Below are positions 31,630 to 32,232 of a stretch of 64,000 bases of DNA, one piece after another. The DNA is from Escherichia coli (GTDB lineage Bacteria; Pseudomonadota; Gammaproteobacteria; Enterobacterales; Enterobacteriaceae). The notes below the pieces were generated by a model. The model made no database searches. It was not told the origin of the DNA and saw only the letters and a program-made list of their open reading frames with translations. The stretch lies in NCBI RefSeq assembly GCF_016903815.1, contig NZ_CP069973.1; one strand, written 5' to 3'. Position numbers and translations under genes: made by a program. Positions within the stretch are counted from its first letter, which is position 1; each line of letters opens with the position of its first letter.

Positions 31630-31941
31630 ATGCTCTTCATCGAAACGGAAATTTTTACTGAAGATGTTCAAAAACTGCTGACCGACGATGAATTCAGTCG
31701 TTTTCAGTTTTTCCTGGCCTTGAATCCTGACTATGGTGAGGTAATACCTGAAACTGGTGGGTTAAGAAAGGTTCGATGGGTGTCAGGAGGAAAGGGGAAA
31801 CGTGCTGGTGTCAGGGTTATTTACTTTCATCAGGTTAAACATTATGAGATCAGATTACTGCTTATTTATCGTAAGGGTATTAAAGATGATCTGTCTCCCC
31901 AGGAAAAAGCAATGCTCCGGTTGTTAAATACGAGGTGGTAA
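31630..31941 (+). CDS. Type II toxin, Gp49/HigB-2-like (RelE/ParE superfamily)
   Basis: 103 aa; motif GGKGKRAGVRVIYFH...IRLLLIYRKGIKDDLSPQEKA typical of Gp49-like toxins; toxin-first gene order; stop abuts antitoxin ATG. Confidence 0.8.
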   Translation: MLFIETEIFTEDVQKLLTDDEFSRFQFFLALNPDYGEVIPETGGLRKVRWVSGGKGKRAGVRVIYFHQVKHYEIRLLLIYRKGIKDDLSPQEKAMLRLLNTRW

Positions 31942-32232
31942 ATGGATAAGGCACTTTTTGAGCGGTTGACTCACAGCATGGCCCAGATGAATGAAATTAT
32001 TGAAGGAACGCGACACCCTTCACGGACTTTTGAAGTTGATGCTATGAAAATCAAAGAAATACGCCGCGCTTCAGGGTTGTCACAATCTAAATTTGCCGAA
32101 CTTATTTCCGTAAGCGTAGACACGTTGCGTAACTGGGAGCAGGGGCGACGTTCACCGACTGGGCCTGCAAAGGCTTTGCTGCGAGCGATTGCCAATGATC
32201 CGCAACATGTGCTGCAGGCACTTAACCGTTAG
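31942..32232 (+). CDS. HTH-XRE antitoxin (HigA-2-like)
   Basis: 96 aa; IKEIRRASGLSQSKFAELISVSVDTLRNWEQGRRSPTGPA helix-turn-helix; immediately follows toxin. Confidence 0.8.
   Translation: MDKALFERLTHSMAQMNEIIEGTRHPSRTFEVDAMKIKEIRRASGLSQSKFAELISVSVDTLRNWEQGRRSPTGPAKALLRAIANDPQHVLQALNR

Follow-up and report, generated by a model that had tools for sequence, protein, structure and literature searches.

Two short genes lie beside fdhE in the Escherichia coli chromosome studied here, and they raise a simple question: what kind of system do they form, and what has kept them at this site? The window, meaning the whole stretch of 64,000 nucleotides that was analyzed, carries a toxin gene at 31630–31941 (+ strand, ATG start, 103 aa) and, immediately downstream, an antitoxin gene at 31942–32232 (+ strand, ATG start, 96 aa). 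Both ORFs had been described in an earlier reading of the bare letters (the sequence-only reading), with the stop of the first abutting the start of the second, and coordinates and peptides proved exact: the toxin stop TAA (31939–31941) runs directly into the antitoxin ATG at 31942 (TAA-ATG; junction sequence GGTGGTAAATGGAT, read from the sequence). There is no in-frame start for the toxin upstream of 31630, because the ORF listing gives the first start after the preceding stop.

Identity of the gene pair

The toxin matches the Vibrio cholerae HigB-2 chains over residues 2–99 without a gap (phmmer, E 1e-19), and the antitoxin matches both the HTH_3 profile (E 4e-10) and the HigA-2 chains (E 8e-9, residues 5–89). 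In 86 of 87 related loci tabulated from other genomes the antitoxin gene immediately follows the toxin gene; the two are co-oriented, adjacent and conserved as a pair, as in a type II operon. Taken together, these matches and this adjacency place the gene pair far beyond chance. The pair is an ordinary, previously described kind of toxin-antitoxin system and a relative of V. cholerae higBA-2, and the proposal of a toxin-first type II module with a HigB-2-like toxin of the RelE/ParE superfamily and an XRE antitoxin thus stands. More specifically, we consider it likely that the pair forms a chromosomal HigBA-2-family operon of type II that is orthologous to Salmonella sehCD, with a HigB-2-type toxin corresponding to sehC (STM4032.2N) and a HigA-2-type antitoxin, named nadS by PGAP, corresponding to sehD (STM4033). 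This ties to HigBA-2 and SehCD two proteins whose RefSeq labels are "hypothetical protein" (WP_000897305.1, the commonest E. coli toxin allele) and "NadS". A literature search by accession found no experimental report on either E. coli protein.

The toxin

To place the toxin more firmly, we compared it with solved structures. The profile of its family matches solved VcHigB2 at E 2e-30, and its AF2 model (pLDDT 89.5) is matched by Foldseek to 5JA8, 5JA9 and 5MJE with TM of 0.84–0.88 and rmsd of 1.1–2.3 Å. VcHigB2 is a proven ribosome-dependent mRNase whose catalytic residues Arg51, Arg64, Tyr82 and Lys84 were defined by mutagenesis, and in the gap-free alignment these correspond to R49, R62, Y80 and K82 of the E. 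coli toxin. None of 53 toxin relatives departs from R49, R62 or K82, and at least 90% of them keep Y80. By homology, this RelE-fold protein is predicted to act on ribosomes during translation, entering their A site and cleaving the mRNA there by means of these four residues.

A toxin of this fold might instead be no nuclease at all and act in another way, e.g., as an inhibitor that binds a second protein, as a preprint reports for SehA, the RelE-fold toxin of a neighboring Salmonella module, which lacks RNase activity and inhibits RNase III. We regard this mode of action as extremely improbable for the E. coli toxin, since SehA belongs to a different family (K-12 HigB-like) and has its key residues in an extra C-terminal helix, while the toxin studied here keeps the full RelE-like catalytic set of VcHigB2.

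The Pfam assignment requires a correction. The sequence-only reading was right to call the toxin HigB-2-like and a member of the RelE/ParE superfamily, but its placement in Gp49 (PF05973) fails: neither the toxin (E up to 0.01) nor any of the 53 relatives matches that family. PF06296 ("RelE", PF_RelE) is matched by 52 of the 53 relatives at E<0.01 and is the sole recurrent family among them, and several homologues that are 70–73% identical to the toxin bear a precomputed PF06296 annotation. On these profile matches the Pfam family of the toxin is most probably PF06296, and not Gp49, though its own score (17.6 bits, E 0.0045) is under the Pfam gathering threshold of 27 bits.

The antitoxin

The antitoxin has a C-terminal XRE helix-turn-helix domain, preceded by an N-terminal segment that is predicted to bind the toxin. 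In a fused AF2 model built from paired alignments, which we use for secondary structure only, residues 3–21 are predicted to form a helix (pLDDT about 92–95) and residues 28–31 a beta strand. Homology and modeling together suggest that the antitoxin is a dimeric XRE helix-turn-helix repressor whose N-terminal ~30 residues would fold onto the toxin as helix and strand and so switch it off. The name NadS is that of NCBIfam NF041265, which the antitoxin matches barely above the curated cut-off (60.4 bits versus 60); in the literature we found neither the origin of the name nor a paper tying it to antitoxin function.

Predicted promoter, operators and translation signals

A search for an upstream palindrome suited to autoregulation had been suggested, and one is present. 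The predicted operator O1 (31576–31592), the putative main site of the antitoxin dimer, is a perfect palindrome, GTACGTCA-A-TGACGTAC, whose core GTACG-N7-CGTAC has the same sequence and spacing as that of the footprinted V. cholerae HigA2 operator, TGTACGC-N5-GCGTACA. The O1 motif has a single match within the 64-kb window. In 39 of the 87 loci, TACG-N7-CGTA is found no more than 120 nt ahead of the toxin gene; the 770 kb examined contain only 42 matches in total. Salmonella, Citrobacter and K. spallanzanii have a symmetric variant, ATACG...CGTAT, in which both arms are changed together. As a sequence motif, O1 is conserved, symmetrically covarying and almost exclusive to toxin upstream regions.

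A second predicted operator, O2 (31609–31625), is an imperfect palindrome, CTAAGCCA-A-TGGCGTAT, centered 33 bp from the center of O1 and extending over the short leader and the predicted transcription start, near 31617. Its block AAGCCAATGGCGTA varies little or not at all across 16 loci representing 12 genera. At the O2 position, Trabulsiella, Erwinia, Tatumella and Pantoea carry TACGCCA[A/T]TGACGTA and Acerihabitans a one-base variant; Erwinia has a perfect O1 besides this motif. From these comparisons we infer that the antitoxin may bind O2 as well.

The predicted sigma-70 promoter (31584–31610, + strand) consists of a -35 element ATGACG (31584–31589) that falls within the right arm of O1, a spacer of 15 nt and an extended -10 element TGT-TACTCT (31602–31610), in which A31606 and T31610, at hexamer positions 2 and 6, are invariant across 16 loci. 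Most other genera have TTGACG as the -35 element, and in Enterobacter, Salmonella, Citrobacter and Cronobacter it is combined with a 16-nt spacer; with its ATGACG and 15-nt spacer, the predicted E. coli promoter looks weak. A consensus scan also offered TTGTTA-16-TATAAT (31601–31628) as the operon promoter. We rejected this candidate because its TATAAT ends 1 nt before the toxin ATG, so that transcription would start inside the ORF, and because it is not conserved in Salmonella or Cronobacter.

In the arrangement that these sequence comparisons suggest, the antitoxin dimer would bind O1, which contains the -35 element, and probably also a weaker O2 over the transcription start, and would thereby repress the operon. 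For the Salmonella orthologue, DNA binding by SehD and 10-fold repression have been reported solely in a retracted paper (PMC3868539). Translation may add a second level of control. The antitoxin gene has a Shine-Dalgarno sequence, GAGGTG (31932–31937, + strand), embedded in the last part of the toxin gene, which itself, as read from the sequence, has none comparable. Because only the antitoxin gene has this signal, it is presumably better translated than the toxin gene, which would keep toxin below antitoxin and offset the toxin-first order.

Age and distribution of the pair

The toxin-antitoxin operon could be the cargo of a recently acquired islet that it stabilizes by addiction, as the sequence-only reading had proposed. 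In its favor is the polymorphism of the locus in E. coli: the pair is present in 2636 of 5426 complete genomes, with strains 55989 and Nissle 1917 as examples of natural carriers, and K-12 lacks the segment corresponding to window positions 28575–32833, the pair included. The comparison with other genera tells a different story. The pair adjoins fdhE in 15 named taxa, representing 11 genera of Enterobacteriaceae beyond E. coli (among them Salmonella, Citrobacter, Enterobacter and Cronobacter), and it co-diverges with FdhE; it therefore predates the islet polymorphism of E. coli and is ancestral at the fdhE site in this family. The actual newcomer is the segment of a 617-aa gene at 28095–30488, which is missing in most carriers of the pair. 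Addiction would also sit poorly with repeated loss of the unit, which is absent from about half of E. coli genomes and in one allele is reduced to one repeat copy. The pair is thus an old resident beside fdhE in many enteric bacteria, not the cargo of a recent islet, and stabilization of the islet is very improbable.

The repeats in question flank the unit. The left copy (30391–30494) and the right copy (32207–32311, + strand, about 105 nt, beginning in the last antitoxin codons) together bracket the esterase gene and the toxin-antitoxin genes, and they are 88% identical over 98 nt. Two loci in which the 617-aa gene is present and the unit absent (L003 and L006) have one repeat copy and then continue at the position equivalent to 32312. 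We considered, by eye, whether the 98-nt repeat is an integron attC site and rejected this, as its ends depart from the RYYYAAC/GTTRRRY cores; inspection by eye also showed no T-run of an intrinsic terminator. An Rfam scan of 27500–34500 returned nothing real.

The bracketed esterase is a divergent alpha/beta hydrolase (Abhydrolase_3; 30493–31401, - strand; PF07859, E 4e-68), the counterpart of STM4032. It adjoins the pair in most fdhE-linked loci, but Cronobacter, Leclercia, Lelliottia and some Enterobacter have the pair without it, and the pair therefore does not depend on it.

The same distribution bears on a role in phage defense by abortive infection, in which infection would lower the antitoxin and the freed toxin would stop translation. 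RelE/ParE toxins have been discussed as defense toxins (PMC11980606), and the pair has matches among the PHROG families (5869 for the toxin, 2104 for the antitoxin). However, PADLOC returns no match for the toxin and only generic helix-turn-helix matches for the antitoxin, and the locus is flanked by fabY, the esterase gene and fdhE rather than by defense genes. A toxin relative occurs in 9 of 50,697 records of a phage collection. Five of these are 35–45% identical; the other four (68–71%) comprise two Salmonella chromosome contigs and two unannotated phage-labeled fragments of 3.7–4.3 kb. Long vertical inheritance, moreover, contrasts with the fast turnover of defense islands. The suggestion of a defense role, also made from the sequence alone, is thus not borne out, and we judge it quite improbable.

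Plasmids give a similar picture of distant relatives. Of 893 plasmid records with a toxin relative, 307 are from Acinetobacter, and all but 11 of the 893 relatives are below 60% identity; three matches of at least 99% come from E. coli records of 1.0–4.9 Mb, which are chromosome-sized or chromosome-derived.

Toxin inactivation and the role of the pair

This leaves a puzzle: if the pair is old and resident, is its toxin still a toxin? One answer would be that the module is domesticated or attenuated, with the antitoxin (NadS/SehD) retained as a useful transcription factor and the toxin weak or acting as a co-repressor, so that neither growth arrest nor addiction would occur natively. The antitoxin is indeed better conserved than the toxin, with mean pairwise identities of 85% versus 73% among fdhE-linked loci and identities to the window proteins of 81–89% versus 67–76%. 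Vertical inheritance beside fdhE in the 11 further genera is unlike typical mobile toxin-antitoxin modules, and the missing Shine-Dalgarno sequence of the toxin gene points the same way. Certain Salmonella and Enterobacter loci combine a frameshifted antitoxin gene with an intact toxin ORF, which would be surprising if the toxin were potent. In Salmonella, the retracted paper (PMC3868539) described deletions of sehC, sehD and sehCD without phenotype, a viable sehD deletion, and a SehC that was not growth-limiting in LB; if these observations hold, the native level or activity of the toxin is low.

Several findings weigh against attenuation. The catalytic residues of the toxin are invariant or nearly so, and purifying selection on the toxin is strong (dN/dS 0.02–0.10, compared with 0.02–0.05 for the antitoxin; between genera dS is saturated, and within E. 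coli substitutions are too few to be informative). In S. Typhimurium, SehC lowers cultivability and SehD restores it, so that the orthologous toxin is both toxic and neutralizable (PMC4366850). Finally, the toxin is the gene that breaks in the population, by frameshifts, IS1 and nonsense mutations, with the antitoxin intact in the same loci. A hot spot is the GGGG run at 31794–31797 (+ strand, toxin codons 55–56): 132 of 2635 carrier genomes have a +G frameshift there, and those examples that we inspected have an intact nadS. Recurrent, independent inactivation of the toxin beside an intact antitoxin suggests that the toxin is costly. We therefore consider an attenuated module unlikely and retain the reading of the pair as a toxin-antitoxin operon of the HigBA-2 family.

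A further element lies upstream of the promoter. A conserved box, CTGGAAAGCGCCTCGCA (31490–31506, + strand), precedes the toxin ATG by about 125 nt. Its GG (31492–31493) and TCGCA (31502–31506) are invariant in 16 loci, and in all loci compared the box occurs on the + strand alone, where it precedes the pair and yiiE/yiiF-like genes. Its GG-N10-GC spacing is that of sigma-54 promoters. We did not adopt a sigma-54 reading: spacing and invariant GG/GC fit, but yiiE and yiiF, which carry the same box, are not listed in the K-12 sigma-54 ChIP-seq paper. The box nevertheless allows a speculative proposal, to which we give little credence, that the pair has been a domesticated regulatory unit, fixed at the formate dehydrogenase-O/fdhE locus for as long as the Enterobacteriaceae have existed, and that the box TCTGGAAAGCGGCTCGCA, as a shared and hitherto undescribed control element, co-drives the pair, yiiE and yiiF. 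If this were true, the pair would be neither selfish nor mobile, and together with the neighboring ribbon-helix-helix genes yiiE and yiiF it would constitute a single regulatory array that responds to stress and serves the host.

Whatever its function, the pair is a toxin-antitoxin module kept at one chromosomal site in 11 genera besides E. coli under strong purifying selection. Because it has been kept so long and has yet been lost or had its toxin inactivated in particular lineages, it is a useful case for the debate over selfish versus domesticated modules.

Comparison with known systems

The closest known system is SehCD of Salmonella enterica (STM4032.2N-STM4033; SL3979-SL3980). It occupies the same position, running from fabY through the esterase gene (STM4032, opposite strand), toxin and antitoxin to fdhE; in strain SARB27 the genes follow one another as STM4030, STM4031, esterase, toxin, STM4033, fdhE, with the toxin located between STM4032 and STM4033. 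The proteins have the same sizes (103 and 96 aa) and are 70.9% (toxin) and 86.5% (antitoxin; 83 of 96 residues, SARB27 protein labeled STM4033) identical to the E. coli pair, and the computed mass of the SARB27 toxin, 12,326 Da, equals the published mass of SehC. A palindromic operator lies at the same upstream distance, with the half-site ATACG in Salmonella and GTACG in E. coli. Judged by position and sequence, the pair is orthologous to sehCD. Much of the SehCD literature comes from the retracted paper. In subspecies enterica a second, unrelated module, sehAB, lies on the other side of the esterase gene, and none is annotated in the E. coli loci inspected. Orthology to SehAB was considered and rejected, as SehB has 142 aa and is K-12 HigA-like; SehCD is the correct orthologue.

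Compared with the E. coli K-12 HigBA (YgjN/YgjM; PDB 5IFG) and Proteus Rts1 HigBA systems, the pair likewise has toxin-first order, a RelE/ParE-superfamily toxin and a helix-turn-helix antitoxin, but those toxins belong to other Pfam families, PF09907 and PF05015, and antitoxins of the K-12 HigA type, such as the 142-aa SehB, have a different architecture. The K-12 HigB and HigA chains are absent from our sequence searches of solved structures (5IFG is absent for the toxin at E up to 10), and the similarity of the toxin fold to 5IFG is weak (Foldseek E 0.34, TM 0.42), in agreement with the earlier view that the pair is distinct from the K-12 higBA (ygjNM) locus.

V. cholerae HigBA-2 (VCA0468/0469; PDB 5JAA, 5JA8, 8A0X) provides the structural model. 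It is toxin-first as here; VcHigB2 is 42% identical to the E. coli toxin over 98 gap-free residues, with the same four catalytic residues; and VcHigA2 combines an N-terminal neutralizing segment with an XRE helix-turn-helix dimer, the layout predicted for the E. coli antitoxin. In the VcHigBA2 crystal structure the neutralizing segment is a helix plus a strand, the secondary structure that our fused model predicts for the N-terminus of the E. coli antitoxin. The antitoxins are about 37% identical, and the N-terminus of the E. coli protein is 8 residues shorter. In its segment DTLRNWEQGR the N and R are kept, i.e., two of the four HigA2 base-contacting residues, and the other two differ (R68 to D, E71 to R). 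Both operators share the GTACG-N7-CGTAC core and overlap a promoter, but the single operator mapped in V. cholerae lies between the -35 and -10 elements, whereas in E. coli the predicted O1 contains the -35 element and a degenerate second site lies downstream. This comparison extends the structural work on HigA2 and DNA to a large enterobacterial clade and predicts in what way the specificity of recognition has changed. In V. cholerae, higBA-2 is activated in a Lon-dependent manner upon amino-acid starvation (literature). The systems also differ in their setting: the V. cholerae module is a superintegron cassette and the plasmid HigBA-2-type modules (e.g., of Acinetobacter) belong to the same wider family, whereas the E. 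coli clade is chromosomal and syntenic, its pair fixed beside fdhE.

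Results

The only solved structures matched by the toxin in a sequence search were chains of Vibrio cholerae HigB-2 (VcHigB2), with E 1e-19 over residues 2-99 and without a gap; when a profile of 53 toxin relatives was used instead, this E value improved to 2e-30, and again there was no other match. The AlphaFold model of the toxin (pLDDT 89.5) superimposes on HigB2 structures with TM scores of 0.84-0.88 and an rmsd of 1.1-2.3 Å. PfiT and RelE structures rank next in the fold search, while HigB of E. coli K-12 (5IFG) reaches only E 0.34 and a TM score of 0.42. The active site of VcHigB2 has been defined by mutagenesis as Arg51, Arg64, Tyr82 and Lys84 (PMC5416850), and these residues align, ungapped, with R49, R62, Y80 and K82 of the toxin; R49, R62 and K82 do not vary among the 53 relatives, in which Y80 is at least 90% conserved. 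The feature is real, and the main interpretation of the sequence-only reading, a HigBA-2-type toxin-antitoxin module, was right. Its assignment of the toxin to the Gp49 family was wrong: PF05973 (Gp49) is matched by 0 of the 53 relatives and PF06296 ('RelE') by 52. In Pfam the window toxin itself does not match PF05973 and has a single, sub-threshold match, to PF06296 (17.6 bits against a cut-off of 27). It also matches PHROGs family 5869 (E 6e-27), with no match in NCBIfam or PADLOC.

Both ORFs lie on the + strand exactly where they had been placed from the sequence, the toxin at 31630-31941 (103 aa) and the antitoxin at 31942-32232 (96 aa) in the ORF listing, and the abutment of stop and start is confirmed: the TAA of the first immediately adjoins the ATG of the second. 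The antitoxin has a good Shine-Dalgarno sequence (GAGGTG, 31932-31937, + strand) within the 3' end of the toxin ORF; the toxin ORF has none, nor is an in-frame start available further upstream. RefSeq names the toxin inconsistently: WP_000897305.1, identical to the window toxin (6231-6542 in L001, a compared locus of another genome), is a 'hypothetical protein', and its T18N variant WP_000897302.1 (491-802 in L009) a 'type II toxin-antitoxin system RelE/ParE family toxin'.

The antitoxin contains an XRE helix-turn-helix domain (Pfam HTH_3, E 4e-10), scores just above the cut-off of the NCBIfam NadS model (60.4 against 60 bits), and matches the V. cholerae antitoxin, VcHigA2, over residues 5-89 (E 8e-9) in the solved-structure sequence search. 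For the window pair we built a fused model from an alignment of toxin-linker-antitoxin concatenates of 30 loci, each joining the two proteins of one genome. In this model, residues 3-21 of the antitoxin are a confident helix (pLDDT ∼92-95) and residues 28-31 a beta strand, which presumably pairs with the toxin sheet because a strand needs a partner and the protein is otherwise all-helical. The neutralising segment of VcHigA2 is likewise a helix followed by a strand (PMC5416850). The model thus lends support, short of proof, to a VcHigA2-like helix-then-strand neutralising segment at the antitoxin N-terminus.

The search for palindromes upstream of the toxin gene that the sequence-only reading had proposed yielded one that is conserved across genera: the perfect palindrome GTACGTCA-A-TGACGTAC at 31576-31592, a predicted antitoxin operator (O1). 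Its core and spacing are identical to those of the VcHigA2 operator, which has been footprinted and crystallised (TGTACGC-N5-GCGTACA, i.e. GTACG-N7-CGTAC; PMC11006873). The pattern TACG-N7-CGTA occurs once in the 64-kb window; it precedes the toxin gene by no more than 120 nt in 39 of 87 loci, out of a total of 42 matches in the 770 kb compared. In Salmonella, Citrobacter and Klebsiella spallanzanii, O1 reads ATACG...CGTAT: both arms have changed, and the dyad is preserved. Of the base-contacting residues of VcHigA2 (R68, E71, N72, R77), the window antitoxin retains N and R and has changed the other two (DTLRNWEQGR), a pattern that would fit a related but shifted DNA specificity.

We aligned 16 upstream regions from 12 genera. 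Downstream of a 17-nt box described below, they are unconserved except for O1 with its -35 element, the -10 element, and a block at 31612-31625 (AAGCCAATGGCGTA). The -35 element lies within the right arm of O1 and reads TTGACG in most genera and ATGACG in E. coli; in the -10 hexamer (TGT-TACTCT, 31602-31610), A31606 and T31610 are invariant. The conserved block forms the right-hand portion of an imperfect palindrome, the second predicted operator O2, at whose position Erwinia, Trabulsiella, Tatumella and Pantoea have a perfect operator. Judged from these sequence elements, transcription is predicted to start near 31617, and the antitoxin dimer would likely occupy both O1, covering the -35 element, and O2, covering the transcription start and short leader. 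Enterobacter, Leclercia, Lelliottia and Cronobacter also have a semi-conserved (T)AACGTA or GTAnnGTA ∼20 nt upstream of O1, similar to an additional operator half-site and weak in E. coli (GTAAGCTAG, 31555-31566).

A consensus scan proposed another promoter, TTGTTA-16-TATAAT, conserved in E. coli, partly in Enterobacter, and not in Salmonella or Cronobacter. We doubt that it drives the operon, because of this poor conservation and because a single base separates its TATAAT (31623-31628) from the toxin ATG. If it were active, its transcript would lack the toxin start codon, and the antitoxin could still be expressed.

The 17-nt box (consensus TCTGGAAAGCGGCTCGCA) is located at 31490-31506 on the + strand, ∼125 nt upstream of the toxin gene. 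It is conserved in the 16 aligned fdhE-linked loci and recognisable in 20 of 20 inspected, and in all sequence compared it is restricted to the + strand and to the neighbourhood upstream of the pair, yiiE and yiiF. The box, written CTGGAAAGCG(G/C)CTCGCA, recurs at 33175-33190 and 33613-33629 (+ strand) upstream of yiiE and yiiF. These two genes (33261-33506 and 33710-33967) encode tandem ribbon-helix-helix (CopG-type) paralogues, and their 79-nt upstream regions (33149-33227 and 33588-33666) are 81% identical. Ribbon-helix-helix proteins are typical antitoxin-like DNA binders, but neither gene has an evident toxin partner. Within the box, GG and TCGCA are invariant and the GG-N10-GC spacing is that of sigma-54 promoters; a sigma-54 ChIP-seq study in K-12, however, lists no site at yiiE or yiiF.

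The pair directly adjoins fdhE in Salmonella enterica and arizonae, four Citrobacter species, several Enterobacter, Pseudocitrobacter, Kluyvera, Leclercia, Lelliottia, K. spallanzanii, Cronobacter and Siccibacter, usually in the order fabY, esterase, toxin, antitoxin, fdhE. In pairwise comparisons, toxin and antitoxin diverge in step with FdhE (Mantel r 0.63 and 0.74, respectively; p ∼2e-4). Estimated within genera, dN/dS ranges from 0.02 to 0.10 for the toxin and from 0.02 to 0.05 for the antitoxin. Relatives with 52-68% identity occur, always paired, in other contexts in Xenorhabdus, Photorhabdus, Erwinia, Pantoea, Legionella and Pseudomonas, and many plasmids carry toxin relatives of <60% identity. 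The pair is an old resident, not islet cargo. The proposal that it stabilises the islet is unsupported: the pair is fdhE-linked across genera, and the E. coli newcomer is the segment at 28095-30488 with a 617-aa gene, a real insertion relative to other genera and to most E. coli carriers of the pair. The suggested role in phage defence is unsupported as well; PADLOC has no match for the toxin.

Among 5426 complete E. coli genomes, 2636 carry the pair (≥95% identity), in one copy each and nearly always on the chromosome. The fabY-yiiE interval takes four forms: 617-aa gene, esterase and pair, as in the window; esterase and pair only, the common carrier form; 617-aa gene only; and none of these, as in K-12. 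MG1655 lacks exactly 28575-32833; one side of its junction lies within the beginning of the 617-aa ORF and the other within a small ORF (32591-32869), which makes the K-12 state look like a deletion, not an empty insertion site. The 617-aa ORF is intact here (28471-30324, + strand), without a Pfam match; in other strains PGAP calls it as two pieces ('hypothetical protein', 'transposase') or a pseudogene. Two PGAP hypothetical proteins, also without Pfam matches, are encoded on the + strand between the antitoxin gene and yiiE (32317-32529, 70 aa; 32591-32869, 92 aa). The esterase-plus-pair unit (30495-32311) lies between direct repeats of ∼105 nt that are 88% identical (30391-30494 and 32207-32311). 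The left copy carries a decayed remnant of an antitoxin gene's last codons, and both copies contain hairpins, with a perfect 19-bp stem in the first (30454-30494). Strains with the 617-aa gene and no unit (loci L003, L006) have a single repeat copy, suggesting that the unit is lost or gained by recombination between repeats.

In 132 of 2635 carriers, the toxin is frameshifted by a +G slip within the GGGG run at 31794-31797. Other E. coli strains have a +TT insertion or IS1 in the toxin gene, and nonsense codons interrupt it in representatives of Lelliottia and K. spallanzanii. The antitoxin is intact in the toxin-decayed loci inspected; in strain EC5931, IS1 sits at the expected place of the antitoxin gene (nadS), adjoining an already frameshifted toxin. 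Toxin-first decay with an intact antitoxin is the order expected if the toxin is active. There are, however, two counter-examples: the antitoxin is frameshifted near codon 10-14 in one Salmonella enterica lineage (L011/L012, 4313-4600) and disrupted by a frameshifting internal duplication at one Enterobacter locus (L015, 4313-4620), with toxin ORF and catalytic residues intact in both. Such loci are unexpected if the toxin is potent.

Discussion

Our literature search found no experimental work on the E. coli toxin or antitoxin; the comparison is with Salmonella. SehAB was considered as the orthologue and rejected: SehB has 142 aa and resembles K-12 HigA. The now-retracted paper that named the seh genes (PMC3868539) describes a second module, sehCD (STM4032.2N-STM4033), separated from sehAB by the single gene STM4032, with a toxin 72% identical to an E. 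coli 'HigB'. A Salmonella Infantis contig with LT2 locus tags has the order fabY, STM4030, STM4031, esterase, toxin, STM4033, fdhE. Its toxin and antitoxin are 70.9% and 86.5% identical to the window proteins, and the computed toxin mass, 12,326 Da, equals that tabulated for SehC by Lobato-Marquez et al. (PMC4366850). [quoted passage not shown]

The retracted paper, to be used with caution, reported that SehC does not limit growth in LB, that a viable sehD deletion was obtained, that SehD represses the promoter ∼10-fold, and that it binds the promoter in EMSA. The study of Lobato-Marquez et al., which is not retracted, found that SehCD qualifies as a bona fide module in S. Typhimurium, where cultivability fell with the toxin and recovered with the antitoxin. 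The pair is an already known kind of system, with a named orthologue in Salmonella.
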